From Actinomycetota bacterium (GTDB taxonomy: Bacteria; Actinomycetota; Coriobacteriia; Anaerosomatales; JAUXNU01): DNA of 64,000 nt. Location of the stretch: positions 27,991-91,990 of the forward strand of contig JAUXNU010000144.1 in assembly GCA_030682655.1 (NCBI GenBank). The letters run 5' to 3'. Below the pieces are notes generated by a model, which ran no database searches, was not told the DNA's origin, and saw only the letters and a list, made by a program, of their open reading frames with translations. The position numbers were made by a program, and so were the translations under genes. Shown in pieces: positions 27,858 to 47,350 of the stretch (its first letter is position 1; every line of letters starts with the position of its first letter).

Positions 27858-29393
27858 ATGTCGCAGAACCTCCCCGCGCTTCTTGTCATCATGGACGGCT
27901 TCGGTCTGGCGGAAGCCGGTCCAAGCAATGCCATCAGTCTTGCACACACGCCTCGGCTGGACGAGTTGTTCGCGCGATACCCGACCTCGCGCTTGTGCGC
28001 GTCCGGTCTTGCCGTGGGCCTGCCGGAGGGGCAGATGGGCAACTCCGAGGTCGGGCATCTCAACATCGGTGCCGGCCGCGTGGTCTACCAGGAGCTGACG
28101 CGCATATGCCGCGCCATAGATGACGGCTCTATTCAGGACAACGAAGTCCTTGCCGAGGCTATCGATGCCGCTGTGGCCGCTGGAGGTGCGGTGCACCTGA
28201 TGGGGCTGCTGTCGGACGGGGGAGTACACAGCCATCGAGACCATCTATACGCCCTAGTCCGAATGGCGAAGAGCCGGGGCGCCTCGCGCATCTTCATTCA
28301 CTGTTTCCTGGACGGACGGGACGTGCCACCGCGTTCGGGGCTCGGATTCGTCCGGGACCTGCAGGTGTTTCTAGACGAGGTTGGCGTCGGTGCGATTGCG
28401 ACGGTGATGGGCCGGTATTGGGCGATGGACCGCGACAATTGCTGGGAACGGGTTGAGAGGGCCTGGCGAGCAATGGTGGCAGGCCAGGGCCAGCCGTGCG
28501 CAGACGCTTGCGGCGGGGTTTCCGCGTCCTACTCCTCGGACGTCACCGACGAATTCGTGGAGCCCCTGGTAGTCACGCGCGCGGGAGTACCCGTGGCGCT
28601 CGTGGAAGACGGGGACAGCGTCGTGCTCTTCAACTTCCGGCCGGACCGCGCGCGAGAGATCACCCGGGCCTTCGTTGATGAAGCGTTCGATCGGTTTCCC
28701 CGACCGACTCGACCGAGTGTTCACTTCGTGTGCCTCACGGAATACGACCCGACGCTTCCCGTGGCGGTGGCGTTTCCGAAGGACATACCTTGCTGCGTGC
28801 TCGCCGACGTGCTCGCAGACGCGGGCCTCAGGCAGCTGCACATAGCGGAGACCGAGAAATACGCCCACGTCACGTTCTTCCTCAACGGGGGTCTTGAGAC
28901 ACCCAAGACGGGCGAAGAGCGGGTCTTGGTGCCCAGTCCGAAGGTGCCAACGTACGATCTACAGCCGGAGATGTCCGCACCGGAAGTCACGGCTCGTCTT
29001 GTCGAGGCGATCGAGGCGGACCGCGCCGACGTCTATGTCGTCAACTTCGCCAATTGCGACATGGTCGGGCATACCGGTGTGTTGTCGGCAGCGGTCGCAG
29101 CGGTTGAGACAGTCGACGATGCGGTTGGGAAGGTGGTCGATGCCATCCGGCGTGCAGGCGGAATCGCCATAGTCACCGCCGATCACGGCAACGCCGAGCG
29201 GATGGTCGCCGAGGACGGTTCAACGCCGTTCACGGCGCACACCCCTGCGGACGTGCCGGTGTGTGTCATCGCGGACGGTGTGCGCACGCTCGCTGACGGC
29301 GGGATTCTAGCTGACATATCGCCCACGCTCCTGTGCCTTCTTGGCATCCCGCAGCCTGACGAGTGGACGGGGCGCTCGCTCTTGCTATACTAG
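27858..29393 (+). CDS. gpmI: 2,3-bisphosphoglycerate-independent phosphoglycerate mutase
   Basis: Motifs LVIMDGFG, GNSEVGHLNIGAGR, SDGGVHSH and TADHGNAE are present. It is 511 aa. Confidence 0.95.
   Translation: MSQNLPALLVIMDGFGLAEAGPSNAISLAHTPRLDELFARYPTSRLCASGLAVGLPEGQMGNSEVGHLNIGAGRVVYQELTRICRAIDDGSIQDNEVLAEAIDAAVAAGGAVHLMGLLSDGGVHSHRDHLYALVRMAKSRGASRIFIHCFLDGRDVPPRSGLGFVRDLQVFLDEVGVGAIATVMGRYWAMDRDNCWERVERAWRAMVAGQGQPCADACGGVSASYSSDVTDEFVEPLVVTRAGVPVALVEDGDSVVLFNFRPDRAREITRAFVDEAFDRFPRPTRPSVHFVCLTEYDPTLPVAVAFPKDIPCCVLADVLADAGLRQLHIAETEKYAHVTFFLNGGLETPKTGEERVLVPSPKVPTYDLQPEMSAPEVTARLVEAIEADRADVYVVNFANCDMVGHTGVLSAAVAAVETVDDAVGKVVDAIRRAGGIAIVTADHGNAERMVAEDGSTPFTAHTPADVPVCVIADGVRTLADGGILADISPTLLCLLGIPQPDEWTGRSLLLY
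29383..29391 (+). promoter_or_regulatory. putative extended -10 promoter (TGCTATACT) for secG, embedded in the last codons of gpmI
   Basis: It is identical to the motif upstream of tRNA-Leu and lies 49 nt upstream of the secG ATG. Confidence 0.35.
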
Positions 29394-33696: not shown

Positions 33697-34713
33697 ATGC
33701 CCTCATTGCTCGAAGTCACCAATCTGAAGACCCATTTCTTCACGCGCGACGGTGTTGTCAAAGCCGTTGACGGGGTGAGCTTCTCGCTCGAGGAGAGCAA
33801 GACACTCGCGGTTGTCGGCGAATCCGGCTCCGGGAAGTCGGTCAATGCGCTGACTCTCATGCGGCTCATCCCGCAGCCGCCAGGCAAGATCGTTGACGGC
33901 GAGATCCGGTTCAAGGGCGAGAGCGTTCTGGCGATGGACGACGCGTCGGTCCGAGCGCTGCGCGGGAACCGGATCGCGATGATATTCCAGGACCCCATGA
34001 CGTCGCTCAACCCGGTGTACCGGGTGGGGCGCCAGATCGGCGAGTCGCTTCAGCTCCACAAAGGCATGAATCGGAAAGAGGCTTTCGAGCGCGCGATCGA
34101 GCTGCTTGACACTGTCGGCATCCCGCAGGCTCGGCAGCGAGCGCGGGACTACCCGCACCAGTTCTCCGGGGGGATGCGCCAACGGGCGATGATCGCCATG
34201 GCACTCGCATGCGACCCGGATATCCTGATAGCCGATGAGCCAACCACCGCGCTCGACGTGACCATTCAGGCTCAGATTCTCGATCTCATGATAGAGCTCC
34301 AGCAACGCACGGGGACCGCCATCATCGTGATCACGCACGATCTCGGTGTCGTCGCGGACATGGCCGATGACGTCATGGTCATGTACGCAGGTAAACAGGT
34401 TGAGTACGGCCCGGCGGACGAGGTCTTCTACAAGCCGCTTCACCCCTACACATGGGGTCTGCTTGACAGCCTTCCCCGGCACGATATCGATGAGAAGGGC
34501 GACTTGTGCCCCATCAAGGGCCAGCCACCGAGCCTCATCAACGTGCCGAGCGGGTGCGCCTTCCACCCGCGTTGCCCCTACGCCAAGGAGATTTGCCGCA
34601 CGACCACCCCGGAACTTCGGGCTATCGATCGCTCGCATGCGGCTGCGTGTCACTTCGCAGGCGACGGAGGCTTCGTGCGGGGCGACGTAGCATGCGCGGG
34701 GGTGAGCTCCTGA
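33697..34713 (+). CDS. peptide ABC transporter ATPase (DppD/OppD-like)
   Basis: It has Walker A (GESGSGKS), the signature FSGGMRQR, Walker B ([11 protein letters not shown]) and a C-terminal oligopeptide-type Cys motif. Confidence 0.9.
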
Positions 34714-35762
34714 TGTCGGAGTTGCTCACGGTCACAAACCTGTGCAAGTACTTTCCGGTGGAGCAGGGCGTTCTCAGTTCGCGCATCGGCAAGAAGGTCT
34801 ACGCCGTCGACGATGTGAGTTTCGGGGTCAATGCGGGGGAGACACTCGGTCTCGTTGGCGAGTCCGGGTGTGGCAAGTCTACTACCGGGCGTTGCGTCAT
34901 ACGTCTTCTGGAGCCCACGCAGGGGTCGATCACATTTGCTGGTGATGATGTCCTGAAGATGCGCGGCGCCGCGTTGCGCGCGTACCGTCGTGACGTGCAG
35001 ATCATCTTCCAGGACCCCTACGCCTCGCTCAACCCGCGCATGACCATCGGCGAGCTCGTCTCCGAGCCGCTTGTCGTTCACAAGATCGGCACCAACGGTG
35101 AGCGTCGTGCGCGAGTCGAGGAGTTGCTCGACACAGTCGGGCTCAACCCGGAACACATCAACCGCTATCCACATGAGTTCTCCGGCGGGCAGCGCCAGCG
35201 CATCGGTATCGCTCGCTCGCTCGCGCTTCAACCCAAGCTGATCGTATGCGATGAGCCCGTTTCGGCGCTGGACGTTTCCATCCAGGCGCAAGTCATCAAC
35301 TTGCTCGACGACCTCCAGGACCGTCTCGGCCTGACGTACCTCTTCATCGCTCATGACCTGTCGGTCGTGCGACATATCTCTGATCGCGTGGCAGTCATGT
35401 ACCTTGGCAAGATTGTGGAGATCGGGGACTGGAAGGAACTCTACGATGCGCCTAGCCACCCCTACACGCAGTCGCTGCTTTCGGCAGTTCCGGTACCCGA
35501 TCCGGACAAGCAGCGCAAGCGCGAACGAATAATCCTCCAGGGAGATGTTCCAAGTCCGATCGATCCGCCGAGCGGGTGCCGCTTCCACACCCGTTGTCCG
35601 ATTGCGCAATTCCCGACATGCTCGGAACGGGAACCGGAGCTTCGCGAGCTCGTGCCTGGTCACAGAGCCGCGTGCCACTTCGCGGAGCCGTTCCCGATCA
35701 GGAGCTCGCACCATCACGCCGTCGCAGCCCACACCCCCAAACCCCCCGCTGAGCAGGGGTAG
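34713..35762 (+). CDS. peptide ABC transporter ATPase (DppF/OppF-like)
   Basis: It has Walker A (GESGCGKST), the signature FSGGQRQR and Walker B ([11 protein letters not shown]). ATG 34713 overlaps the previous stop; ATG 34692 is an alternative start. Confidence 0.9.
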
Positions 35763-35779
35763 GCAACGCTAGGACGTAT

Positions 35780-35788
35780 TGCTATACT
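35780..35788 (+). promoter_or_regulatory. putative extended -10 promoter (TGCTATACT) for tRNA-Leu
   Basis: It lies 31 nt upstream of the mature tRNA 5' end and is the same 9-mer as at 29383. Confidence 0.4.
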
Positions 35789-35819
35789 TGCCAACGCTGT
35801 CCCCCCGGGGACACCACAT

Positions 35820-35905
35820 GTCCGAGTGGCGGAATGGCAGACGCGCTAGGTTGAGGGCCTAGTGTCCTTAGGGACGTGCGAGTTCAACTCTCGCCTCGGA
35901 CACCA
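35820..35905 (+). tRNA. tRNA-Leu (anticodon GAG), CCA encoded
   Basis: Manual folding gives acceptor GTCCGAG/CTCGGAC, anticodon stem CTAGG/CCTAG with loop TTGAGGG, a long variable arm (TGTCCTTAGGGACGT), T-arm GCGAG-TTCAACT-CTCGC, discriminator A and CCA. Confidence 0.9.
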
Positions 35906-35915
35906 TGAGTGAACA

Positions 35916-35946
35916 GCGGCTCTTCCCGAAAGGGGAGGGCCGCTTT
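35916..35946. terminator. bidirectional terminator between tRNA-Leu and the convergent PP2C sensor gene
   Basis: GCGGCTCTTCCC-GAAA-GGGGAGGGCCGC forms a 12-bp stem with 2 G-U pairs and a GNRA loop, followed by TTTGCGCTT. Confidence 0.6.
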
Positions 35947-35952
35947 GCGCTT

Positions 35953-38394
35953 CTAGCTCCCTGCCGAGGACGGGTCGCTGTCGACGGTGCCCACACTGTC
36001 GGGTCCGAGGTAGCGGAAGGCTACGACGGCGATGTCGTCCGACGGATGCCCGCCGGCGTGTTCCTCGGCTGTCGCCAGCAGGCGTTCGACGACTACCTGA
36101 GGTGAGGCGTCACCTAGCGAGTCAAGCACGTCCCGGACACCGCTCTCGCCAAGGAACTCCGATCCGCGCCTTGAGTCGATCAACCCATCCGTGTACATGA
36201 CGAACCGGTCTCCGATTTCGAGCCGTGACTCGTACTCCTCGAAGATGCTGTCGGGATCGACGCCGAGCGGAAGGTTCCTCACGGTGATGTCCTCGGCACA
36301 TCCCGCGATCGTGCATACGACCGGGGCAGGATGCCCGGCGCACGCGACGCTCATGACTCCCGTGCCGAGATCGAGGACCCCGTAGATTGCCGTGATGAAG
36401 CGAGCTTCATCAATCTGCTGCGTGATCGCACGGTTCGCGGATGTGAGTACTTGTGCTGGGCGGTCCTCCCGGTATGCGAACGCCCGTATCGTGCTGCGTG
36501 CCATGGCGGTGAGCGTGGCCGCCTCAAGTCCCTTGCCCGCGACATCTCCTACCACGAATGCGACACGTCCCGGGTGAGCCTCGAACACGTCGTAGAAGTC
36601 ACCGCCGATCCTTGTCAGCTCGGCGACACTGCGATACGCCATCGCTAGGTCGACACCGGGAATCTCGGGAGCTGCGGTAAGAAGGGCTGCCTGGAGCGTA
36701 TCGGCAATGCGGTGCTGGGACTCGTACAGGCGTGCATTCTCGATGAACAGCGTGAGCATGACAGAGAGCTTCCGCGCGAAGTCGATCTCATCCTCGGTGA
36801 AGGCGTGTGGCTCCCCATGGAAGTTTACGTACAGAATGCCTATCCGCTCCTCGCGGAAGCGCATCGGGACGGCCATGGCCGAGGAAATGCCAAAGAGGTG
36901 CATCGTGGCCGAGTTTGCGCGGGGGTCTCCGGGCGCGTCGTCGAGAGCCAGCGGTTCGCTGTCGTCCTCGTCCCTGATCGGGATGGGCACGTCGGCATCC
37001 GTGAACGTGCTGCCGATGATGTCCTCGGGAAACTGCCATGCATGAACCGGTACCCACAGGTCGCCTTCGCGCAACATGATGGAGGCACTGTCGGCATCCA
37101 GGGCGGCGCCGGTCTCCTCGACCACGCGCCATAGGACCTCATCGATATCGAGAGAAGCGAGGATCGTCTGGTCGATGGCAGCGAGGGCGGCGTTGAGATC
37201 GCGGGAGGCGCGGAGGCGATACTCTGCACGCTTGCGACGGTCAATGTCCTCAACCGTTGCGATGAAGTACTTCGGGGCGCCCTCTTCGGTGGTGAGCAGC
37301 GTGCGGGTCGTATTGACCCAGATCACGGACTTGTCCTTGCGAATGTAGCGTTCTTCGAGGTCGTAGTCCGCGATCAGCTCGCCTACGAGAGCGTCGTCCA
37401 GCTTGCGCTGGCGCACGAGGTCTTCGGGATGCGTGATCGCGTCCGGCGACAGCTCCAGCAGCTCGTCAACGGGGTAGCCGGTGATGTTCGCGAACCGCGG
37501 GTTGACCGTCAGCCACGAGCCGTCAAGTCCGACGTGCGCGATTCCAAGACTTGCCTGCTCGAATGTCGACCGGTACCGGACTTCGCTGTCGCGAAGCGCA
37601 TCAGCAGTCTGGGTCAGTTCGCGAAACAGAACGTCGTACGGCCGCGTCAGCCCGATGTAGACGACCGCGCGATACAGCGCGAAGTAGGCGATGATGCGTA
37701 CGAAATGGCCGGCCAGGTTCCACGGTCCGAAGGGATGCGCGTACAGCGTGAACATCACCTCGGCGAGAGCGGAGGTCGCTATGCTGAGCGCGATGAATCG
37801 GGACACCCCTGGATCGAAGTGGCGGCGGGCGCGTGCGAACAGGGAAAGACCCACGAGAAACGCGGCAACGACGACCCACTCGCTCCAAATCTTGAACGGT
37901 GTCAGTCCTGAGTCCTCGATGAACGCCCGGGGAAAGATCCCTGCGATGATCGAGCCCACAAGCAGTACCGAGGCCGCTGCAAACACCCAGAACACCGTAG
38001 CTGGGCGCGCACGCCGGGTGACGAACAAGGGAGCCGCTAGAACCGCGACAGCCTGCAGGTAGCGTGCGGCCAGCCACAGCTGCGTGGGCAGGTCGGTGCT
38101 CACATCCGGGATAATACCGACCCCGCGGTAGGTGACTGCGTGCAGCAGGTCGATACCGGCCACGAAGAGGTAGGCGATCCCGAGAACGAGCAGGTAGCCG
38201 TTAGTGAAGTAGCGTCGGGCGTTCCATGTTACCGTGAACGCCAACGCTGCAACGACAACCGCGAAGAGCTCTACGAACAGGTGAAATGCCGGGTAACCAA
38301 GGGATTGTCGCACGATGAGAAGGACTCCTGCGACGGCGACCCAGCCGAGGGTGTAGGCAAACCAGCGGTTGTCGTACCGATGTTCGATCGTCAT
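35953..38394 (-). CDS. membrane sensor with PAS, GAF and SpoIIE/PP2C phosphatase domains
   Basis: An N-terminal block of about 8 TM helices is followed by PAS/PAC (FEQASLGIAHVGLDGSWLTVNPRF..RYIRKDKSVIWV), GAF (DIDEVLWRVVEE..) and C-terminal PP2C (GGDFYDVFE..VVGDVAGKG..YTDGLID). Confidence 0.8.
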   Translation of the reverse strand: MTIEHRYDNRWFAYTLGWVAVAGVLLIVRQSLGYPAFHLFVELFAVVVAALAFTVTWNARRYFTNGYLLVLGIAYLFVAGIDLLHAVTYRGVGIIPDVSTDLPTQLWLAARYLQAVAVLAAPLFVTRRARPATVFWVFAAASVLLVGSIIAGIFPRAFIEDSGLTPFKIWSEWVVVAAFLVGLSLFARARRHFDPGVSRFIALSIATSALAEVMFTLYAHPFGPWNLAGHFVRIIAYFALYRAVVYIGLTRPYDVLFRELTQTADALRDSEVRYRSTFEQASLGIAHVGLDGSWLTVNPRFANITGYPVDELLELSPDAITHPEDLVRQRKLDDALVGELIADYDLEERYIRKDKSVIWVNTTRTLLTTEEGAPKYFIATVEDIDRRKRAEYRLRASRDLNAALAAIDQTILASLDIDEVLWRVVEETGAALDADSASIMLREGDLWVPVHAWQFPEDIIGSTFTDADVPIPIRDEDDSEPLALDDAPGDPRANSATMHLFGISSAMAVPMRFREERIGILYVNFHGEPHAFTEDEIDFARKLSVMLTLFIENARLYESQHRIADTLQAALLTAAPEIPGVDLAMAYRSVAELTRIGGDFYDVFEAHPGRVAFVVGDVAGKGLEAATLTAMARSTIRAFAYREDRPAQVLTSANRAITQQIDEARFITAIYGVLDLGTGVMSVACAGHPAPVVCTIAGCAEDITVRNLPLGVDPDSIFEEYESRLEIGDRFVMYTDGLIDSRRGSEFLGESGVRDVLDSLGDASPQVVVERLLATAEEHAGGHPSDDIAVVAFRYLGPDSVGTVDSDPSSAGS

Positions 38395-38535
38395 GGGTCC
38401 TCGTCCGCAGGCGAGAGCTGTTCGGGGTTTGTGATCCTGGGGTATCGTGACATGCGCCGCGGCACACGGGCAACCGCCCGGTGGTGGGCTGCGCTATCCT
38501 AGACGGGTGACCTAGGGGAAGGTGCGTGGGAGTAC

Positions 38536-39255
38536 GTGATCGAGTTCGCCGAGATCACTGTTGGCCACGATGCGGGCGTCGGGTGTGTTCGCTGTCGCCC
38601 GACCCACCACATGATCGGTTCCTGCCGACCCAGGGAGGACATCGTTGCCGACATCGGATCGGCGGTCGACGGCTGGAGCTGGGGTTGCGGTCCGAACATC
38701 GTCCTGCTCGGCTGCGAGGCCTTCTCACATCCGGATCTGACCGAGGTCGTTGATTCTGCTGTTCGCGCCGGGGTAGTGCGCCTGTCCGTCAGGACAGATG
38801 GTGCGGCGCTTGCAGACCCGGACGCCGCTGAGCATTTCGTGCGCACGGGCGTGCGACGCATCGAGGTAACGCTTCTGGCCGGGTCCTCGGAGGTTCACGA
38901 CAGGCTCACAGGGTCACCTGGAAGCTTCGACTTGGCCATCGCCGGAATGCGTGCATTTGCCGCGGCTTCGAGCTCGCAGGACGTCAAGACGACTCTGTCC
39001 GGCCTGGTCCCCGCATGCGAGCACAACATCACCGGCATCCCCGACACAGTCCTTGCCTTCGCCCAGGCGGGGGCAAGCGTCGTCACTGTTGATGCCTCGC
39101 GCGCGAAGCGGCGCGCTCACGTACCCTGGCTCCAGGCCGCGGCGCTCACGGGCGTGCTCAATGCCGTGTGGGTATCCATCGAGGGTATCGAGCCGGAGAC
39201 GCTCGGCGAGGGGGCCGCGCACGCGGTGCCTGCCACGACTTGCAGGGGGGCTTGA
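38536..39255 (+). CDS. radical-SAM-like TIM-barrel protein lacking the canonical CX3CX2C and GGE motifs
   Basis: The core resembles MoaA/SPASM-type radical SAM enzymes (LLGCEAFSHPDL..VRLSVRTDGAAL..GVRRIEVTLLAGSSEVHDRLTGSPGSFD..GMRAF). The N-terminal Cys pattern is CVRC-x10-C, and GCE replaces GGE. Confidence 0.5.
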   Translation: MIEFAEITVGHDAGVGCVRCRPTHHMIGSCRPREDIVADIGSAVDGWSWGCGPNIVLLGCEAFSHPDLTEVVDSAVRAGVVRLSVRTDGAALADPDAAEHFVRTGVRRIEVTLLAGSSEVHDRLTGSPGSFDLAIAGMRAFAAASSSQDVKTTLSGLVPACEHNITGIPDTVLAFAQAGASVVTVDASRAKRRAHVPWLQAAALTGVLNAVWVSIEGIEPETLGEGAAHAVPATTCRGA

Positions 39256-39256
39256 G

Positions 39257-40552
39257 GTGTCCGCGGGTCCGCTGCGCGTGGCTCTGCTGGGGCTTAGTTC
39301 CTCCGGCTATCAGTCGCTTGCCCTTGGCTACCTGAGGGCGTCCGCCGAAGCTGACTCGCGGCTTGCGGGACGGGTCGGATTCCAGACACTCGATCTGACG
39401 GTCGACCTTGATCCATGGTGGGTCGCGTTTCGCGTTGTCGACATGAGACCGGATGTCCTTGGCATATCTGTGACCTGCTGGAATGCGCGGAAGGTATACG
39501 AGTTGTGCGACATCGTTCGGGGAGCGATGCCGGAGATCACTATCGTCCTCGGCGGCCCGGAGGTCGGACCGATCGCCGAACGTGTCCTGGAGCTGAACCC
39601 GGCCGTCGACATCATCGTCAGAGGTGAAGGCGAGGAGACCTTCTCTGACCTTCTGGACACATTGTCGCGTGGAGGGAAACCCTGGCGCGTCGAAGGCGTC
39701 ACAGCGCGTCGGGAGGGCTCGATCTCGTCCGCCCCTGACCGCTCCATAATCGGGACGCTCGACGCGATTGCTTCCCCGTACCTGTCCGGGGTATGTCAGC
39801 CCCTGGAGGGCTCCGCCTACATTGAGACATACCGGGGCTGCCCGCATAAGTGCGGGTACTGCTTCGAGGGCAAGGGATACGGGCGAGTGCGGTGCTTCTC
39901 GGACGAACGCGTCGAGGCCGAGGTAGCGGCGATCGTCGCGAGCGGCGTTCGCACATTCTCTTTCATCGACCCCGTGTTCAACCTGACCCGCGAACGGCTC
40001 GGTTGGCTCGCGGGTCTCATGGAGCCGTATGCGCGGGAGGGTGTCAGACTGCACACCATCGAGGTCGATATCGAGCGCATCGGTGCCGAGGAGGCAGCTC
40101 TGCTGAAGATGGCGGGAGTCATGTCCGTGGAGACCGGGCCCCAGACGGTGGGGAGTGCCGCGCTCGCTATCTGCCGGCGGTCCTTCGATCGCGACCGGTT
40201 CGCCGCCGGAGTGGGGGCCCTGCGTGCAGAGGGAATCAGCGTCGAGTGTGATTTCATCGTCGGGCTGCCCGGCGACACGCTTCAGGACTTCCTGGACGGC
40301 CTTCGCTTCGCACTCACGCTCGATCCCGGGAAGATCCAGATATCGACGCTTCATGTGCTGCCGGGGACCGACCTGTGGGAACGCGCGGACGAGTTCGGTC
40401 TCGTATTCCGCGAGGAGCCGCCGCACGAGGTGGTGTGTACCGCGCAGATGAGCTTCACGGATCTTCGCCGGGCTGAGGTCCTCGGCAGTTCGGTTGTTGC
40501 GCAGTACAGCGCCCGCACGGGTCCGCCGGTCGCAGGGGCGGTGGCGTCGTGA
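39257..40552 (+). CDS. B12-binding-domain radical SAM enzyme (class B type)
   Basis: An N-terminal Rossmann-like cobalamin-binding region (VLGISVTCWN..IVLGGPEV..IIVRGEGEETF) is followed by ETYRGCPHKCGYCFEG (CX3CX2C). GTG 39257 lies 1 nt after the upstream stop. Confidence 0.8.
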   Translation: MSAGPLRVALLGLSSSGYQSLALGYLRASAEADSRLAGRVGFQTLDLTVDLDPWWVAFRVVDMRPDVLGISVTCWNARKVYELCDIVRGAMPEITIVLGGPEVGPIAERVLELNPAVDIIVRGEGEETFSDLLDTLSRGGKPWRVEGVTARREGSISSAPDRSIIGTLDAIASPYLSGVCQPLEGSAYIETYRGCPHKCGYCFEGKGYGRVRCFSDERVEAEVAAIVASGVRTFSFIDPVFNLTRERLGWLAGLMEPYAREGVRLHTIEVDIERIGAEEAALLKMAGVMSVETGPQTVGSAALAICRRSFDRDRFAAGVGALRAEGISVECDFIVGLPGDTLQDFLDGLRFALTLDPGKIQISTLHVLPGTDLWERADEFGLVFREEPPHEVVCTAQMSFTDLRRAEVLGSSVVAQYSARTGPPVAGAVAS

Positions 40553-41715
40553 GTGGTGTCTCGCGCCGCGCGCAGGCGATTCGGCCGTTCGTGGTCATGG
40601 ACATCGTTGCGCGGGCGAAGGAACTTCAGGCTCAAGGTCGTGACATCGTTCGGCTCGAGATCGGCGATCCTGACCTTCCCACGCCGGATGTTGTCAAGCG
40701 GGCCGCCGAGGAAGCGATGGAGCGTGGGGACACGGGGTATACGCAGTCTCTCGGCATCCCCGATCTTCGCGACGCCGTATCCCGGCACTATGCGCGGACA
40801 TACGGCGTCGAGGTTGACCCGGATCACATCATCGTCACCCAGGGCACGTCTCCGGCGATGCTGCTGCTCTTTGGCGCTCTGCTCGATCCCGGCGACGAAG
40901 TGATCGTCTCCGATCCGTGCTACACGGCCTACCCGAACTACATCGATTTCCTTGGCGGCGCTACCGTTCGTGTCCCTGTGCGTGCCGAGGAGGGCTATCG
41001 CTTCCGGCCTGAGGAGGTGCGCGCGGCGATCACGCCACGGACCAGGGCGGTGATGATCAACTCGCCGGCCAACCCGATGGGGACGACTCTCGGACCCGAT
41101 GACCTTCGTGCTCTGGCGCAGATTGCCGAGGAGACCGGCGTCTACATCGCGAGCGATGAGATCTACCACGGGCTGTGCTTCGACAGTGAGGATCGCTCGA
41201 TCCTGCAGTTCACCGACCGCGCGTTCGTGCTGAACGGCTTCTCCAAGACGTATGCCATGACCGGGTGGCGGCTGGGATACCTCATCGCGCCAGAGGAGTT
41301 CGTCCGTCCTGCCGAGAAGATTCAGCAGAACTTCTTCCTGTGCGCGAATCACTTCGTGCAAGTCGCCGGCGTTGTTGCGCTGGAGAAGACAGATGCGGAG
41401 GTCGCGCGGATGAAAGCGATCTATGACGAACGGCGGCGCTTCCTGGTCCCGGCTCTGAGGGACATTGGTCTGCTGGTGGCTTCTGAGCCTTCGGGCGCGT
41501 TCTATGTGTTTGCGGACGCCCGCGCGTGGGGTTCGGACTCTCTCGTTCTCGCCCGTCGTCTACTCGAGGAGGTCGGCGTCTCCGTTGCGCCCGGCATCGA
41601 CTTCGGGGCAGGCGGCGAAGGCTTCCTGCGCTTCAGCTATGCTACCTCCCTTGATCGTCTGCGGGAGGGCGTCGAACGCCTGCGTGTGTGGGCGGACGAG
41701 AACGTGCATGCGTGA
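40549..41715 (+). CDS. class I/II PLP-dependent aminotransferase (AspC-like)
   Basis: Segments LEIGDPD, NSPANPMG and FSKTYAMTGWRLGY (PLP lysine) are present. The GTGA overlaps the radical SAM gene. Confidence 0.85.
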   Translation: MSGVSRRAQAIRPFVVMDIVARAKELQAQGRDIVRLEIGDPDLPTPDVVKRAAEEAMERGDTGYTQSLGIPDLRDAVSRHYARTYGVEVDPDHIIVTQGTSPAMLLLFGALLDPGDEVIVSDPCYTAYPNYIDFLGGATVRVPVRAEEGYRFRPEEVRAAITPRTRAVMINSPANPMGTTLGPDDLRALAQIAEETGVYIASDEIYHGLCFDSEDRSILQFTDRAFVLNGFSKTYAMTGWRLGYLIAPEEFVRPAEKIQQNFFLCANHFVQVAGVVALEKTDAEVARMKAIYDERRRFLVPALRDIGLLVASEPSGAFYVFADARAWGSDSLVLARRLLEEVGVSVAPGIDFGAGGEGFLRFSYATSLDRLREGVERLRVWADENVHA

Positions 41716-41947
41716 GGCGGTGCTCCCCGAGTTGCGGTTCCGGGCGTTGAGCCCGATGATGACCGGCAAGGATGTGCAGTCATCCCGCGGAATCATCCAT
41801 TCGTCGCGGGAAGCTCCAGCTTCTTGGGAGCAACGACGATGAACACTGTAGTATGTGATGTACGACACTGTGCAGCGGCATGGAAGTTGCTTTCATTTGA
41901 GAGACACCAACCAGTCGCTGCATGGCGCAACCGAGGGGACACGAGAC

Positions 41948-42673
41948 GTGATCGATAGTTGGGGCAAGGCCGACCTCCACATCCATACCGCTCACAGCGA
42001 TGGCATCGCGCGGGTCCCCGAGGTAATGGACTACGTGCAGGAGCACACGGACCTGCAGGTAATCGCCATAACCGATCACAACACGATCGAAGGGGCCCTG
42101 TTTGCCAAGTCCCTGGAGGAGCTCTACGACTTCGAGGTCGTCGTGGGCGAGGAGATCTCTTCCCGTTCCGGCCACATCATCGGCCTATACCTGGAGCACC
42201 CGATTCGGGCGGGACTATCGGCCGCTGAGACCATCTCCCGAATCAACGAGCAGAACGGTGTGGCGATCATCCCGCACCCGTTCTCGAATCAGGGGGTCTT
42301 TGGTCCATTCGGCATGAACGCATTCGGTGCTGCGCTCAACGACCTGGCGTTTCACGCGCTCGAGGTCTACAACTCGATGCCGTTCCTGGTCTATGCGAAC
42401 CGGGTCGCTTCAATGATGTTCGCGGGTGGACAGGGTATCGCCGCGACAGGGGGATCCGATGCCCACGTGCTGCATGGCATCGGCAAGGGCTACACCGTCT
42501 TCAAAGGGTCAACGGCCGAGGAGCTAAGGACCAGCATCGACAATCTCGAGACGCGTGCCGAAACCGGTCGCGGGGGCTTGTCTGTGGCCTTGCGCTACGC
42601 GTTCCGCGACCCGCAGATCCGTCGCCAGCAATCGCTGAACTGGGAGCGCTGCAAATCCCCCGCACGCTCGTAG
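41948..42673 (+). CDS. PHP-family metal-dependent phosphoesterase
   Basis: Segments DLHIHTAHSDG, ITDHN and IIPHPFS are present. GTG 41948 (8 nt after GAGGGGA) was preferred over the ATG at 41855. Confidence 0.7.
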   Translation: MIDSWGKADLHIHTAHSDGIARVPEVMDYVQEHTDLQVIAITDHNTIEGALFAKSLEELYDFEVVVGEEISSRSGHIIGLYLEHPIRAGLSAAETISRINEQNGVAIIPHPFSNQGVFGPFGMNAFGAALNDLAFHALEVYNSMPFLVYANRVASMMFAGGQGIAATGGSDAHVLHGIGKGYTVFKGSTAEELRTSIDNLETRAETGRGGLSVALRYAFRDPQIRRQQSLNWERCKSPARS

Positions 42674-42728
42674 TGCGGCGTGCGCACCGATCCACGATCC
42701 AGGACCGCTGTACTCTCCGTACGGTGCC

Positions 42729-44018
42729 CTAGCGTCGTTCCAGGTCCGATTTGGCTGCCAGTACAGCGCTCCTCAGCGCCTCCGCAACCACCGGGTCTTC
42801 CCCCCACGCGGACAGGCGAGTCACGTATACGTGTGAATCGACGCGTGCCTGGCGCATTGCAACAGTCAGGTCGAGAACAGTCGAGACCGACTCAAGCGGG
42901 TAGCACGCGGGGACGACAAGTATTCGTGTGCATCCGAGTGCTGCAAGATGGCGAACTGTCTCGGTCACGTCGGGAGGACGCCAGTCCGCCCAACACAATC
43001 GGATGTTGTTCTCCGCAAGGCCCTTCTCGATGAGTGTTATCCGCACCCTGTTCACGAATGCGTTCTCCTGCACGTCGAACCCGGCGTGCGTGCGTTCCCG
43101 GCCCTCGGACTGCCCGTGCATGAGAAGTGCGACACCGGTGGTCGAGGGATTCTGTGTGCTTGCCGCGATGCGCGCTGAGACCATGTTGACGATGCGATCT
43201 GACGCCCACAGCGGAGAGGTGTAGACGACTTCGAGGCCGGCGGCTTCGGGTCGCAGCGTATCAATCGATGCCTTGGCCCGGTCAATATCGAATGACTCCG
43301 CCACTGAGAGCGCGGCGACGATAATGCGGCGAAACCCACGGCGGTAGAGCCGCGCGACGTTTGCAGCGAGGGACTCCTTGCTGCCGCAAGTCACGAGATC
43401 GACGCGAGGGAACTGCTCTCGCCCAAGAAGCCCTTGAAGCTGGGCTGTGACAGACCGCGCCTGTGCGGCGGCGGGACTACGTCCTCCCACAGCACGGTAG
43501 CGCGCCTTCTGAGCAGCATACAGAAACGGCGTGATACCTATGCCTGCTTCCGGCAGCCCGGCGTCAGCGAGGTCGATCAGGTCGCGCGCGGTTGCGGACG
43601 GATCGTACGTTTCGGGCTCGATGCACGCCAAGACGACGACTGCTATTGGATTCCCGTCCGAGATGGGACCCTCATCCACCAGTTCCACCGAGGGTGTCCG
43701 GGAAGCCATGTGAGTCAAGACCGAAGAGGCAAGGCCAAACCCGCCTCCAACGACGCCAAGGGCAAGAAGCGCAGCGAAGAGGGTGACCTCGGTCCTTCCG
43801 TACGCGATGACGATGCGAGCGAGGCCAGCGCCAACGAGGCTGGTTGAAACGAGCGCAACGACCAAAGCGAGCGGTTCGCGCGAGCGCTTCAAGCTCAAGA
43901 GTCCCACGACGGCAGCTCCGGTCACCAACGCGCCGCCGAGGAGTTCTATCCAAGCAATCGTGGGCACACCCGGAACCTCTCTACGCATGTCATCCGATAA
44001 TACCCCTAGTGAAGCCAT
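42729..44018 (-). CDS. membrane-anchored class II chelatase (ferrochelatase/CbiX-superfamily) protein
   Basis: About 4 N-terminal TM helices are followed by two ferrochelatase-like half-domains (YRAVGGRSPAAAQARSVTAQLQGLL..; LLMHGQSEG..RILVVPACYPLESVSTVLDL). ATG 43988 is an alternative start. Confidence 0.55.
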   Translation of the reverse strand: MASLGVLSDDMRREVPGVPTIAWIELLGGALVTGAAVVGLLSLKRSREPLALVVALVSTSLVGAGLARIVIAYGRTEVTLFAALLALGVVGGGFGLASSVLTHMASRTPSVELVDEGPISDGNPIAVVVLACIEPETYDPSATARDLIDLADAGLPEAGIGITPFLYAAQKARYRAVGGRSPAAAQARSVTAQLQGLLGREQFPRVDLVTCGSKESLAANVARLYRRGFRRIIVAALSVAESFDIDRAKASIDTLRPEAAGLEVVYTSPLWASDRIVNMVSARIAASTQNPSTTGVALLMHGQSEGRERTHAGFDVQENAFVNRVRITLIEKGLAENNIRLCWADWRPPDVTETVRHLAALGCTRILVVPACYPLESVSTVLDLTVAMRQARVDSHVYVTRLSAWGEDPVVAEALRSAVLAAKSDLERR

Positions 44019-44032
44019 CGGGATTGACAGCG

Positions 44033-44051
44033 ATACCCCAGGGGGTATACT
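44033..44051 (+). promoter_or_regulatory. CsoR-type operator fused to a TATACT -10 hexamer, in the chelatase/trxA divergent region
   Basis: ATACCCCAGGGGGTATACT carries the inverted repeat ATACCCC/GGGGTAT. It is nearly identical to the site at 45401-45420 and resembles the B. subtilis CsoR copZA operator (TACCC-N4-5-GGGTA type). Confidence 0.6.
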
Positions 44052-44096
44052 TGATACGTACGCAGTATATGAGGACAGATCGTGAGGAGTAACTCC

Positions 44097-44426
44097 ATGG
44101 ATGGTTCAGTGAGAGATGTTTCGAGCAAGGACTTCACTTCCGAGGTTCTAGATGCGAGCATGCCGGTGGTCGTGGATTTCTGGGCTCCATGGTGCGGGCC
44201 GTGTCGGGTCGTTGGTCCGGAGATTGAGAAACTCGCCGCGACGATGGGCGATTCGGTGAAGTTCGTGAAGGTCAACATCGATGACAACCGGGAGCTTGCC
44301 GTCACGTATGGAGTCATGAGCATCCCGACGATAGCCAAGTTCGAACGCGGGAGCCTGGTTGCACAGGTGGTTGGCACCCGAGGTGCGGACGGACTTCGTG
44401 CGGAACTCGCGCTTGCTGCGAGCTGA
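44097..44426 (+). CDS. trxA: thioredoxin
   Basis: The active site is VVDFWAPWCGPCRVVGP and the segment YGVMSIPT is present. ATG 44097 lies 7 nt after GAGGAG. Confidence 0.9.
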   Translation: MDGSVRDVSSKDFTSEVLDASMPVVVDFWAPWCGPCRVVGPEIEKLAATMGDSVKFVKVNIDDNRELAVTYGVMSIPTIAKFERGSLVAQVVGTRGADGLRAELALAAS

Positions 44427-44431
44427 TAAGA

Positions 44432-44626
44432 TTGCCTACGTATGACCTGCAGTGTCAGGATTGTCGGGAGCGGTTCGAGTTGTTCGTCCCGCGCCTGATC
44501 CGGGACGAGGACAAGATCTGTCCGCGTTGTGGTTCGGATCGTGTGAAGACCGGCGTAGGCGGCGGGCTCCTTGGCCGGGGTACCAGGGCGACGAATCCCT
44601 CGTGCGGCACAGGGGGATTCACGTGA
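44432..44626 (+). CDS. FmdB-family zinc-ribbon protein
   Basis: The sequence MPTYDLQCQDC..ICPRCGS has the family-typical MP.Y.Y.C..C start, two CxxC pairs and a Gly-rich tail ending in C..GG. The start codon is TTG. Confidence 0.75.
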   Translation: MPTYDLQCQDCRERFELFVPRLIRDEDKICPRCGSDRVKTGVGGGLLGRGTRATNPSCGTGGFT

Positions 44627-44670
44627 GGATGAGCTAGGCCCTTCGGACGAAGGGCAGACGAGGCGGCTCT

Positions 44671-45042
44671 GTGGAATACGCCTACAAACGTGTTGGGACC
44701 ATGAACTTCACCAAGACGATCGAAGCCGTGGAGCGATCAGCTCGCGACCACGGCTTCGATGTGCTTCACTACCACGACATCACAGCGGCGCTCGCCGCCA
44801 AGGGGTTTCCGATTCGTCCGCTTGCGATCTTCGAGATCGCTCCTGCGGGCGTGGAGCTGGAAGTGCCGGTCTCCCTGCTCATGCCATGCCGGGTCAACGT
44901 TTACGAGCAGGATTCGGAAGTCGTCATCGCCGCGCTCCGGCCTACGCTCTTCAGTGCTGTCTACCCCGAGCACGGACTCGACGAGATAGCTCTCGAGTTC
45001 GAGAAGGCCGTGGTAGCGGTCGTGGACGGAGCGGTTGGCTGA
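44671..45042 (+). CDS. DUF302 domain protein
   Basis: Its size (about 120 aa) and pattern (..FTKTIEAVERSARDHGFDV..HDI......KG......AIFEI..P..) fit DUF302. Confidence 0.7.
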   Translation: MEYAYKRVGTMNFTKTIEAVERSARDHGFDVLHYHDITAALAAKGFPIRPLAIFEIAPAGVELEVPVSLLMPCRVNVYEQDSEVVIAALRPTLFSAVYPEHGLDEIALEFEKAVVAVVDGAVG

Positions 45043-45051
45043 CCGTTCCGT

Positions 45052-45348
45052 CTACTGGACGCACGACGAGTACTTGAGGAACACGGCGATTGCATCGTCG
45101 ATCAGCTCGTCCCGGGTCTTGTCAGTGTCATCGATCAGGCAGCGCTTCATCGAGTGCCCGATGATGTGCATCCCGACCTGATTGAGTGCCGACTTGGCCG
45201 CCATGATCTGGGTGAGGACGGCCTCACATTCCTTCTCGGACTCGATCATTGTCTGCAGGCCGCGAATCTGACCTTCGAGACGTTTGAGACGGTTGATGAT
45301 GCGCCGGCGCTCGCTGTCGTCGGGGATGGTTGCGGAGATGTCAGCCAT
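45052..45348 (-). CDS. CsoR/RcnR-family metal- or persulfide-sensing transcriptional repressor
   Basis: The sequence is RRRIINRLKRLEGQIRGLQTMIESEKECEAVLTQIMAAKSALNQVGMHIIGHSMKRC. I chose the start at MADIS (ATG, complement of 45348-45346). The 88-codon upstream extension in the ORF track is non-homologous. Confidence 0.85.
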   Translation of the reverse strand: MADISATIPDDSERRRIINRLKRLEGQIRGLQTMIESEKECEAVLTQIMAAKSALNQVGMHIIGHSMKRCLIDDTDKTRDELIDDAIAVFLKYSSCVQ

Positions 45349-45400
45349 TGGTCGCTCCCGGTCTTTGGATTGCGGTATTATTGGGCGTTGCCTGTAGGAT

Positions 45401-45420
45401 AATATACCCCCTGGGGGTAT
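45401..45420 (-). promoter_or_regulatory. CsoR-type operator fused to a TATATT -10, in the csoR/CDF divergent region
   Basis: The minus strand reads ATACCCCCAGGGGGTATATT. The plus-strand 17-mer ATACCCCCTGGGGGTAT (45404-45420) is a perfect palindrome. It lies 55 nt upstream of the csoR ATG and 25 nt upstream of the CDF ATG. Confidence 0.65.
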
Positions 45421-45444
45421 GCCACACAACCGTGCGGGAGAACC

Positions 45445-46392
45445 ATGGGCTATCGCAGGGAGGAAGGTGCAGGGGCGGGAGCGTCGCCCAGGGTACGCCG
45501 GATCAGGCGGATCCTGTGGGCGATTCTCGTCCTGAACCTCGCGGTCGCCGTCGCGAAGATGGCCTGGGGGTATGTCACGGGCTCGGTGGCGATGCAGGCA
45601 GACGGCTTCCATTCACTGTTTGACGGCGCTTCGAACGTCGTGGGACTTGTTGGGATGTACGTCGCCGGCCGGCCCGCCGACCGCGAGCACCCCTACGGCC
45701 ACGGCAAGTTCGAGACGTATGCATCAGCGGCCATCGGCGCGATGCTCGCATTGGCTGCATACCGCGTGGGCAGCAGTGCCATCCATGCGCTCGTTGACGG
45801 TGGCGCACCGCCCCGCGTCGACGCGGTGTCCTTCGGGATCATGATCGGCACGCTCGCTGTCAACATCGGTGTCACGACGTATGAGCGTCGCGTGGGACGC
45901 AAGCTCGGTAGCGAGATTCTCGTCGCGGACGCAAGCCATACGGGAAGCGATGTTCTCGTGAGTCTCGGCGTTATCGCTGGGCTGGTGGCCGTGCGTCTCG
46001 GCTTCCCGATCGCCGACCCGATCATCGCGCTCGGGGTATCCGTAGCGATCGCATACACCGCATGGGCGGTCTTTCGACAGGCCAATGAGACCCTGTCGGA
46101 CAGCGCCCGCATCGACCCGGGAGAGATTTGCGGAGCGGCCTGCCTGGTCGAAGGTGTCCTTGGCTGCCACAGTGTCCGGACGCGCGGTTCGGAGTCGGAG
46201 GTCTACGTCGATCTGCATATCCAGGTCGACCCGTCGTCTACTGTCAAGGAAGGACATGCCGTGGCCGAGGAGGTCGAGCGCGCAGTCTGCGTGGCCTTCC
46301 CTTCGGTGGTCGACGTGATAGCGCACCTGGAGCCTCTCGACGAATACCAGGCGTCAAAGACCGCCGAGGAGATCGATGCCGGTCTCGTCTGA
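45445..46392 (+). CDS. cation diffusion facilitator (CDF) family divalent-metal efflux protein
   Basis: Six TM helices carry the CDF metal-site motifs (GSVAMQADGFHSLFDGASN; ADASHTGSDVLVS) and a C-terminal cytoplasmic domain. The RBS is GGGAGAA. Confidence 0.85.
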   Translation: MGYRREEGAGAGASPRVRRIRRILWAILVLNLAVAVAKMAWGYVTGSVAMQADGFHSLFDGASNVVGLVGMYVAGRPADREHPYGHGKFETYASAAIGAMLALAAYRVGSSAIHALVDGGAPPRVDAVSFGIMIGTLAVNIGVTTYERRVGRKLGSEILVADASHTGSDVLVSLGVIAGLVAVRLGFPIADPIIALGVSVAIAYTAWAVFRQANETLSDSARIDPGEICGAACLVEGVLGCHSVRTRGSESEVYVDLHIQVDPSSTVKEGHAVAEEVERAVCVAFPSVVDVIAHLEPLDEYQASKTAEEIDAGLV

Positions 46393-47350
46393 TCAACCCT
46401 CGCACGCCTGGAAGGGCTACGCTCTTGCCGTGTTGGCTGCTGCGAGCTGGGCCACCGGCGGGCTCACGGCGAAGTGGCTCTTCAGTCCGCTTGACGCCAC
46501 GACGTCGGCGTGGCCGCTTCCTCCACTCGGAATGCAGATCGATCCAGCCGTTCTGTCGGGAGCCCGTGCTCTGACGGCCTTTGCGTTGCTTGCCGCGTAT
46601 CTCGTGTTTCACAGACCGGGCGAGATCCGGGTGTCCATCCGGGAGGTGCCGTTTCTTGCCGTCTTCGGGGTCTTCGGTCTCGCGGCGGTCCACTTCACCT
46701 ACTTCAAGGCGATCTCCTACACGAACGTCGCCACGGCGATTCTGCTGGAGTACCTGGCGCCTGTGATCGTGTTGGTCTTCTCCGTGGCTTTCCTCGGTGA
46801 GCGTCTGACGTGGTCGCTCCCCGCCGGTGTGGCACTTTCGATAACGGGGTGTGCGTTGGTCGTGGGCGCAGCATCACCCGGTGGCATAGTCGTGTCGGTC
46901 CGGGGCGTCGCGTGGGGTCTGGCCGCCGCGGCGTTCTTCGCCCTTTACTCTCTCCTCGGAAAGCACGCCGCAGGGCGATTCTCGCCCTGGAGACTACTTG
47001 TCTTTGGGCTCGGGTTCGCGACGCTGTTCTGGGTCATCTACTTGCGCGGTGTCACCGCGATCTTCGGGGCCATGTCGTCTCCGGGCGGAGCAGCGTCAAT
47101 CGTGTACGTGGCGGTCGTGAGCACGATCGTTCCGTTCTCGGCTTTCCTCAAGGCGTTGCACTATATCGATGCAACCCGGGCGACTGTGACCGCCACTCTG
47201 GAGCCCGTGATAGCGGGAATCGCCGCATGGTTGCTCCTCGGCGAGACCTTCGACGGCACGCAGCTTGCCGGAGGCGCGTTCGTCATGTGCGCGATTCTGC
47301 TTGTTCAGCGCACGGGACACGCTAGGGAGTCGCTGCCGCCAGCCACGTAG
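46376..47350 (+). CDS. EamA/DMT-family transporter
   Basis: Ten TM helices form two EamA repeats. Its start overlaps the CDF gene by 17 nt. Confidence 0.8.
   Translation: MPVSSDQPSHAWKGYALAVLAAASWATGGLTAKWLFSPLDATTSAWPLPPLGMQIDPAVLSGARALTAFALLAAYLVFHRPGEIRVSIREVPFLAVFGVFGLAAVHFTYFKAISYTNVATAILLEYLAPVIVLVFSVAFLGERLTWSLPAGVALSITGCALVVGAASPGGIVVSVRGVAWGLAAAAFFALYSLLGKHAAGRFSPWRLLVFGLGFATLFWVIYLRGVTAIFGAMSSPGGAASIVYVAVVSTIVPFSAFLKALHYIDATRATVTATLEPVIAGIAAWLLLGETFDGTQLAGGAFVMCAILLVQRTGHARESLPPAT

Follow-up and report, generated by a model that had tools for sequence, protein, structure and literature searches.

Three tightly coupled genes in an Anaerosomatales genome

We analysed a 64,000-nucleotide stretch of DNA (hereafter the window) corresponding to positions 27,991 to 91,990 of contig JAUXNU010000144.1, from the genome of an uncultured anaerobic Actinomycetota bacterium of the order Anaerosomatales in the class Coriobacteriia (2.9-Mb assembly GCA_030682655.1, 97% complete), and focused on three plus-strand genes that each start with a GTG codon. 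The first gene (38536..39255) encodes a protein of 239 amino acids (aa) that resembles radical S-adenosylmethionine (SAM) enzymes and that we call the partner; the second (39257..40552) encodes a short cobalamin-dependent (class B) radical SAM enzyme of 431 aa, called the B12 enzyme below; and the third (40549..41715) encodes a 388-aa class I aminotransferase using pyridoxal phosphate (PLP), which resembles aspartate aminotransferases (AspAT) of the subgroup Ib type. Comparisons between genomes showed that the conserved functional unit is made of the first two genes only (hereafter the pair), and the best explanation that we could find overall, in which we place somewhat better than even confidence, is that these two genes encode a two-subunit methyltransferase in which the partner is now a non-catalytic subunit.

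The original prediction on this DNA, made from the sequence alone, had proposed that the three genes form a translationally coupled cassette, and its description of the junctions turned out to be exact. The stop codon of the partner gene (TGA, 39253-39255) is followed by a single G (39256) and then by the start codon of the B12 gene (GTG, 39257-39259), giving a 1-nt gap, while the GTG at 40549 that starts the aminotransferase gene overlaps the TGA of the B12 gene (40550-40552) by 4 nt (GTGA, 40549-40552). In most of 20 related loci, a start codon for the B12 gene overlaps the stop codon of the partner gene by 4 nt and the junction between the B12 and aminotransferase genes is an overlap or a short gap; such recurrence across relatives shows that the coupling is not due to chance. 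Overlapping reading frames couple the translation of the pair and, in Anaerosomatales, the aminotransferase gene joins the pair in a single array with tight coupling.

The array is followed by a plus-strand gene (41948..42673) encoding a PHP-domain metallohydrolase of the CehA/McbA type (NF038032 with 86.7 bits for a cut-off of 80, plus a PF13263 match). This gene most likely starts at the GTG at 41948, a start supported by the way it is called in L137, a close relative, so that it lies 232 nt downstream of the aminotransferase gene, as had been predicted. The open reading frame (ORF) map also agrees with the earlier statement that no precursor-like ORF, transporter or regulator is present inside the cassette, and no plausible small precursor-peptide ORF was detected in the cassette or in the 232-nt gap. 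On the other side, the partner gene is divergent from a minus-strand gene encoding a MASE3-PAS-GAF-SpoIIE sensor, and the 141-nt intergenic region between the two (38395..38535) is presumably the promoter region of the three coupled genes, since it is the sole non-coding stretch upstream of them. Scanning this region for a consensus sigma-70 promoter gave no match, a result that carries no information in this phylum. The region upstream of the partner gene was also aligned with the regions upstream of the aminotransferase gene in genomes lacking the pair, to ask whether the pair sits behind the old promoter of the aminotransferase gene, and these sequences were too diverged across the order to tell. 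No riboswitch or other Rfam element was found around the cassette, apart from a tRNA gene (35820-35902; Rfam RF00005, 51.6 bits) with the transporter genes on one side and the gene of the sensor phosphatase on the other.

The partner and the B12 enzyme are conserved together without the aminotransferase

The three genes had originally been treated as one triad, a reading that a lack of co-conservation had been said to refute. The comparison of gene neighbourhoods that had been suggested as a check gave this refuting outcome for the aminotransferase gene, as the pair is found without it outside of the order and as it is found without the pair inside of the order. For this comparison, 15-kb regions around orthologs of the B12 enzyme were taken from 20 Anaerosomatales genomes belonging to many families. 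A block of ~14 kb (33697-47350 in the window) was syntenic throughout these regions, with an oligopeptide transporter, the MASE3-PAS-GAF-SpoIIE sensor, the pair, the aminotransferase, the PHP hydrolase, a membrane ferrochelatase-like protein, a thioredoxin, a DUF302 protein, CsoR, CDF and EamA in that order, and with no mobile genes around the pair. The synteny of this block, from the ATPases of the oligopeptide transporter to EamA, is unusually stable for an order-level comparison. Since the whole block is syntenic across the order, adjacency inside it says little about function.

Orthologs of the B12 enzyme were found in ~33 of 40 Anaerosomatales genomes, always with the partner alongside, and the aminotransferase gene adjoins the pair in 43 of the 47 Anaerosomatales loci with enough downstream sequence. 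Five genomes separate the two: G007 (99% complete), G017 (a single closed contig) and G022 keep an aminotransferase ortholog and lack the pair, while G006 and G016 keep the aminotransferase gene in the block and carry the pair on another contig. In all five, the aminotransferase gene is followed by the PHP gene and is still inside the same syntenic block, so that the PHP gene remains a conserved neighbour of the aminotransferase gene whether or not the pair is there. The displaced pair of G016 is flanked by an ArsR-type regulator and a two-component system and that of G006 adjoins a tyrosine recombinase gene, with no aminotransferase gene near either of them. In G006, the tyrosine recombinase gene and phage-like genes directly follow the displaced pair (L027, 8542-9714), a context which hints that the pair can move. 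We considered whether loss of the pair could be tied to loss of cobalamin synthesis and rejected this idea, as CobS is present in four pair-less genomes that were tested, G017 being matched only in fragments.

Outside of the order, a survey of Actinomycetota detected the B12 enzyme in 14 of 401 genomes, nine of which belong to other classes. At the four loci of these other classes that could be checked, the partner gene is directly upstream of the B12 gene and overlaps it by 4-10 nt, with no aminotransferase or PHP gene nearby. Scanning species-representative genomes added Nitrospirota (Thermodesulfovibrionia), one metagenome-assembled genome (MAG) of Nanoarchaeota and one of Aenigmatarchaeota, in which the partner gene is again immediately upstream; in the phylum of the Nitrospirota example, the pair was found in 1 of the 201 genomes sampled. 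No aminotransferase gene stands beside the pair in any lineage found outside of Anaerosomatales, all-against-all clustering of the neighbours at 13 loci from outside the order revealed no gene other than the pair that is shared between lineages, and no Rosetta-stone fusion of the partner and the B12 enzyme was found.

The Nitrospirota loci have surroundings of their own. On two contigs (L133 and L136), the pair is divergent from mnmG and rsmG (gidA and gidB) and is followed by a PemK/MazE toxin-antitoxin system and then by genes for a HAD hydrolase and an Aas-like acyl-ACP synthetase/acyltransferase; one of these contigs also bears a transposase and a group II intron. Four other Nitrospirota loci have a HAD gene upstream of the pair, and ~4 kb of DNA downstream of a Nitrospirota pair (L118, 5300-9248) contain no ORF longer than ~120 aa and no Rfam match.

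The aminotransferase resembles a core enzyme

A reading in which the three genes belong to one pathway, with the B12 enzyme C-methylating a keto or amino acid, the aminotransferase interconverting these and a methylated amino acid or amino-lipid head group as the product, would fit with the 4-nt overlap between the second and third genes, with the overlaps or short gaps that recur at this junction in relatives and with the position of the aminotransferase gene after the pair at most loci of the order. We nevertheless find it improbable, considering that the aminotransferase and PHP genes stay in place where the pair is absent or located elsewhere, that the pair has no aminotransferase beside it in every lineage outside of the order and that adjacency is little informative in a 14-kb block that is syntenic as a whole. 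The keto-acid route to a methylated amino acid that had been invoked for the triad is unsupported for the same reason, the aminotransferase being independent of the pair.

The protein itself also behaves as a core enzyme. It matches PF00155 (E 1e-63) and contains the SKTYAMTGWR motif with the PLP lysine that had been noted when it was described as an AspC-like PLP enzyme; its residues 2-378 are collinear with residues 2-378 of Thermus thermophilus AspAT (E 7e-85), and its best NCBIfam model is PRK08960 (401 bits for a cut-off of 554). The genome has no other AspAT-like gene; the paralogs that come next are DapL (LL-diaminopimelate aminotransferase, above cut-off) and a PatB C-S lyase. Identity across the order is 70-81% for the aminotransferase, higher than for either radical SAM gene. 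When compared with a relative at 84% amino-acid identity, the ratio of non-synonymous to synonymous substitution rates (dN/dS) was 0.09 for the aminotransferase gene, as low as for the B12 gene (0.08), with values of 0.05 for the PHP gene and 0.17 for the partner gene. We therefore read the aminotransferase as a probable neighbour from general metabolism rather than as a core part of the module formed by the pair.

The B12 enzyme keeps the cluster and cobalamin motifs and has no C-terminal cap

The middle protein had been described as a class B radical SAM enzyme with a cobalamin-binding N-terminal domain and a CPHKCGYC cluster motif, and this description was borne out. Residues 41-132 match the B12-binding family PF02310 (E 4e-15), giving a B12 Rossmann domain, and the radical SAM domain (PF04055, E 2e-18) carries an intact CX3CX2C motif, in which C195, C199 and C202 are invariant among 21 orthologs from four phyla. 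Moreover, a G69-x-S71-x-T73-x-W75 motif aligns column for column with A70-x-S72-x-Y74-x-W76 of TokK; S71 is invariant and W75 at least 90% conserved among orthologs. In TokK, Trp76 lies under the cobalt of cobalamin (PMC9204698). The dN/dS of the B12 gene is 0.07-0.08, and the genome encodes CobS, so that cobalamin is plausibly available in the host.

Most members of the very large class B group of radical SAM enzymes are uncharacterised. The profile searches that had been proposed in order to place the B12 enzyme left it in no curated subgroup, and none of the three proteins scored above the cut-off of any NCBIfam model. Among curated families, NF033712 (KedN5) matches the B12 enzyme best, with 175 bits for a cut-off of 700 and with a match limited to profile positions 18-398 of 624; BchE, HpnJ, HpnR, PhpK, BzaD and the ladderane family were considered too and all scored below KedN5. 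The closest relatives with solved structures are TokK (E 3e-28) and CysS (E 6e-27). An AF2 model of the B12 enzyme (pLDDT 92) compared with CysS and TokK using Foldseek gave TM-scores of 0.82-0.85 when normalised to the query (TMq) and of 0.55-0.60 when normalised to the target (TMt), with CysS as the best match (TMq 0.85, TMt 0.60). Both the alignment and the model showed what is missing: the protein covers residues 11-402 of the 681 residues of TokK, ends ~30 residues past the barrel and is devoid of a C-terminal cap or substrate-binding domain. From these matches, it is a reasonable inference that the B12 enzyme is a methyltransferase, and the earlier remark that class B enzymes typically methylate unactivated carbons is in line with its nearest characterised relatives (TokK, CysS and the KedN5 family), which do so. 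Membership in the TokK family is not a reasonable inference, since two defining features, the score cut-off and the C-terminal domain, fail.

The Anaerosomatales partner lost a catalytic cysteine and is maintained by selection

We aligned 38 partner sequences from Anaerosomatales with 10 from other lineages. Outside of the order, partners are ~285 aa long and appear as canonical radical SAM proteins, with a complete C13-x-N15-x-C17-x2-C20 motif, a GGEP motif for SAM binding and a C-terminal tail with four cysteines (C211, C242, C245 and C251), which fits with a single predicted auxiliary cluster. The partner encoded in the window only weakly matches PF04055 (E 2e-8): an Ala (A13) takes the place of the first cysteine of an otherwise retained C17-x2-C20, leaving CX3CX2C incomplete, G59-C60-E61-A62 is found where canonical orthologs read GGEP, and the protein ends at residue 239, before the auxiliary-cluster tail. 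Cys13 is present in 0 of 38 Anaerosomatales sequences versus 10 of 10 sequences from outside the order, and this first cysteine is lost in all of the ~50 Anaerosomatales loci. The cysteine tail is missing in 38 of 51 Anaerosomatales partners and kept in the other 13. Two genomes (G009 C108 and C168; L089 and L096, JACRBU01) carry two copies of the pair, one with a short partner and the other with a long partner that retains the cysteine tail.

Despite the loss of this cysteine, the partner gene is under purifying selection and is not decaying: in addition to the value of 0.17 given above, its dN/dS was 0.09-0.10 when compared with a more distant relative. An AF2 model of the partner (pLDDT 95) displays a partial radical SAM barrel (half-barrel fold), and its top Foldseek matches are DesII, BlsE, SkfB and GDGT-MAS, with TM-scores of ~0.65. 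Among curated families, canonical partner orthologs are closest to HxsC4 and HxsC (87-108 bits for cut-offs of 268-500), and the partner of the window matches HxsC4 with 41 bits for a cut-off of 500. Many of the strongest matches to a profile of the canonical partner (P0254-P0400) are proteins of 550-1400 aa that contain two to six tandem radical SAM domains and no B12 domain.

Alternatively, both proteins might be active radical SAM enzymes catalysing two successive radical steps on one substrate, with the cluster of the partner bound by relocated ligands (C17, C20, C161 and perhaps H163). Non-canonical cluster spacings do exist in the superfamily, as in ThiC, QueE variants and Dph2. In keeping with this proposal, C17, C20, C161 and H163 are all 100% conserved in the 38 Anaerosomatales sequences, while C161 is variable and H163 not conserved in canonical orthologs; the SAM-binding motif is largely kept in the order (G59 97%, E61 76% and P62 71%), and purifying selection on the partner is strong. 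It is yet hard to reconcile with a cluster loop that offers no local substitute for C13, with an auxiliary-cluster tail that is gone in most copies and with the predicted model, which places C161 after strand beta-5, and a structural zinc site would account for the Cys3-His set just as well. We thus regard relocated ligands as unlikely, although as the alternative that deserves most attention.

A candidate two-subunit methyltransferase

We propose that the pair forms a two-subunit methyltransferase because its translational coupling is universal, because the B12 enzyme has no cap and because the partner survived the loss of its catalytic cysteine. The B12 enzyme would be a methylcobalamin-dependent C-methyltransferase of the TokK/CysS type, in which a 5'-deoxyadenosyl radical would abstract a hydrogen atom from the substrate before methylcobalamin donates the methyl group. 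The partner would stand in for the missing C-terminal cap in trans, as a tightly bound subunit. At its origin, it would have been a genuine radical SAM enzyme holding a single auxiliary cluster, a state that other phyla would have retained; in Anaerosomatales, it would then have lost its first cluster cysteine, and usually its auxiliary cluster too, to persist as a selected and probably non-SAM-cleaving subunit that may present the substrate or act as a scaffold. To our knowledge, all class B methyltransferases with a solved structure bear their own substrate-binding C-terminal domain. Homologs of the B12 enzyme that have no partner (30-36% identity) are 507-794 aa long. Substrate binding in TokK and TsrM involves their C-terminal domains (PMC9204698).

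As for the substrate, weak hints point to a peptide or protein of ribosomal origin, with its gene elsewhere, rather than to a small molecule. The canonical partner is nearest to HxsC, a peptide-modifying family, albeit below cut-off; the Nanoarchaeota pair lies, at this single locus, in a radical SAM island that also encodes an HxsD-domain protein; and the N-terminus of the Aenigmatarchaeota partner is PqqD-like (PF05402, E 0.017, below the Pfam threshold). A full version of our proposal, in which a capless B12 methyltransferase with a pseudoenzyme as its substrate-binding subunit would methylate such a peptide or protein, is one that we put forward tentatively and judge rather unlikely to be right in all its parts.

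The two archaeal loci have further features. The Nanoarchaeota island (L134, 1-20861; MAG contig JAHIYL010000254.1) spans 20 kb with about ten radical SAM genes, among which are one partner gene followed by three B12 paralogs in tandem as well as HxsB-like and MiaB-like genes, together with the HxsD-domain protein and a second, HxsD-like small ORF; genes for a type I phosphodiesterase, a CysD-like protein and a PMT_2 glycosyltransferase-like membrane protein are found there too. In the Aenigmatarchaeota MAG (L127, 58-792; WAQT01000051.1), the gene in the position of the partner lacks the cluster cysteines; its first ~90 residues have PqqD as their top Pfam match, below threshold and over the full profile, a segment which may be a peptide-recognition domain, and its C-terminal half still matches the partner.

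Other routes were searched for in the genome and found to be unsupported. A phosphonate route lacks support in that no PEP mutase was found, as does a tetraether or membrane-spanning lipid route in that no Tes was found above cut-off. Cultured Anaerosomatales contain mainly unbranched C16-C18 fatty acids and no detected quinones (PMC9686372), so that methylation of a lipid or a quinone is not supported. No HxsA-like HxS-repeat protein was found in the genome either, leaving a His-Xaa-Ser (HXS) system unsupported; a search of the genome for HxsD gave no match, but it was uninformative, as the control likewise matched nowhere.

HXS is an antiphage system (PMC13128918), and the pair could also be seen as a mobile accessory or defence-type module that matures an effector in a similar manner, instead of having a metabolic role. 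The patchy spread of the pair (14 of 401 genomes sampled in Actinomycetota and, for the phylum that includes the Nitrospirota example, 1 of 201), its sporadic, genus-level loss within the order, and the toxin-antitoxin, PIN-domain, transposase, group II intron or integrase genes that adjoin it in several lineages fit with an accessory and horizontally moved function. In addition, the B12 enzyme matches the PADLOC candidate PDC-M51A (117-142 bits), the partner weakly matches prokaryotic viperins and its nearest named family is HxsC, which gives a possible defence role thin support. Countering this, the HxsA-like repeat protein is missing from the genome, the partner matches no PDC-M51 component, the Anaerosomatales pair resides in a stable core-genome block without mobile genes and all of these family scores are far below membership levels. 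We consequently see a module maturing a defence effector as very improbable.

Several points also weigh against the two-subunit methyltransferase that we prefer. The complex and the cap provided in trans are themselves deduced from the coupling of the genes and from a missing domain. C17, C20, C161 and H163, invariant throughout the order (38 of 38 sequences), may still hold a cluster or a metal, in which case the partner would not be catalytically dead. The hints towards a peptide are all sub-threshold or come from single loci, while TokK, CysS and KedN5, the characterised proteins nearest to the B12 enzyme, act on small or carrier-bound molecules and DesII and BlsE, among the best structural matches of the partner, act on sugar nucleotides. 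Finally, the tight coupling of the aminotransferase gene at 43 of 47 loci leaves room for a lineage-specific functional link with the pair, and this enzyme has a Gly at position 109 of its alignment with T. thermophilus AspAT. The aligned chain is that of a mutant; in the wild-type protein, we take this position to be a Lys that recognises the distal carboxylate of aspartate. The substrate range of the aminotransferase may then differ from that of a classical AspAT.

Implications and comparison with known systems

If our proposal is true, the pair would represent a two-subunit architecture that is new among class B radical SAM enzymes, as well as a datable case of pseudoenzyme evolution within the radical SAM superfamily. 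A conserved short form of the B12 enzyme that always occurs with a second protein of radical SAM fold points to a previously undescribed design with two subunits, and this pairing spans bacteria and DPANN archaea. The order-wide loss of a catalytic cysteine in a partner that stays under selection offers a natural experiment separating a structural from a catalytic role. The locus also calls for caution more generally, in that tight operon coupling within a lineage-wide syntenic block is poor evidence for a shared pathway.

The third gene is best compared with the AspAT of T. thermophilus (subgroup Ib; PDB 1bjw and 1gc3), with which it shares full-length collinearity and the PLP-lysine motif, and from which it differs by the Gly at position 109, its scores being under every NCBIfam equivalog cut-off.

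For the B12 enzyme, TokK, ThnK, CysS and KedN5 (NF033712; PDB 7kdx and 9n1b) are the best matches both in sequence and in fold. Like it, they have a cobalamin Rossmann domain at the N-terminus and then a radical SAM barrel, with CX3CX2C intact and with an (A/G)-x-S-x-(Y/T)-x-W motif whose Trp matches Trp76 of TokK. These proteins are 624-681 aa long and carry a C-terminal substrate-binding domain, whereas the B12 enzyme has 431 aa, no such domain and a score of one quarter of the family cut-off (175 of 700 bits); it is always paired with a separate protein of radical SAM fold, and no natural-product gene cluster surrounds it.

The partner invites two comparisons. HxsC and HxsC4, the maturases of the HXS system, are the best curated matches of its canonical orthologs; they too are small radical SAM proteins paired with a second radical SAM enzyme, and an HxsD-domain gene lies near the pair at one archaeal locus. 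They differ in that the scores are below cut-offs, that the second enzyme is here a B12 radical SAM enzyme rather than HxsB, that the partner of the window lacks the first cluster cysteine and that no HxsA-like substrate was found in the genome. Pseudo-radical-SAM proteins (TIGR04347, pseudo-SAM/SPASM) resemble the partner by having kept the radical SAM fold with a degenerate cluster motif, although the partner, with 31 bits for a cut-off of 525, is not a member of that family. What sets it apart from them is that intact orthologs in other lineages allow its degeneration to be dated to a single order, and that it is obligately coupled to a B12 radical SAM enzyme.

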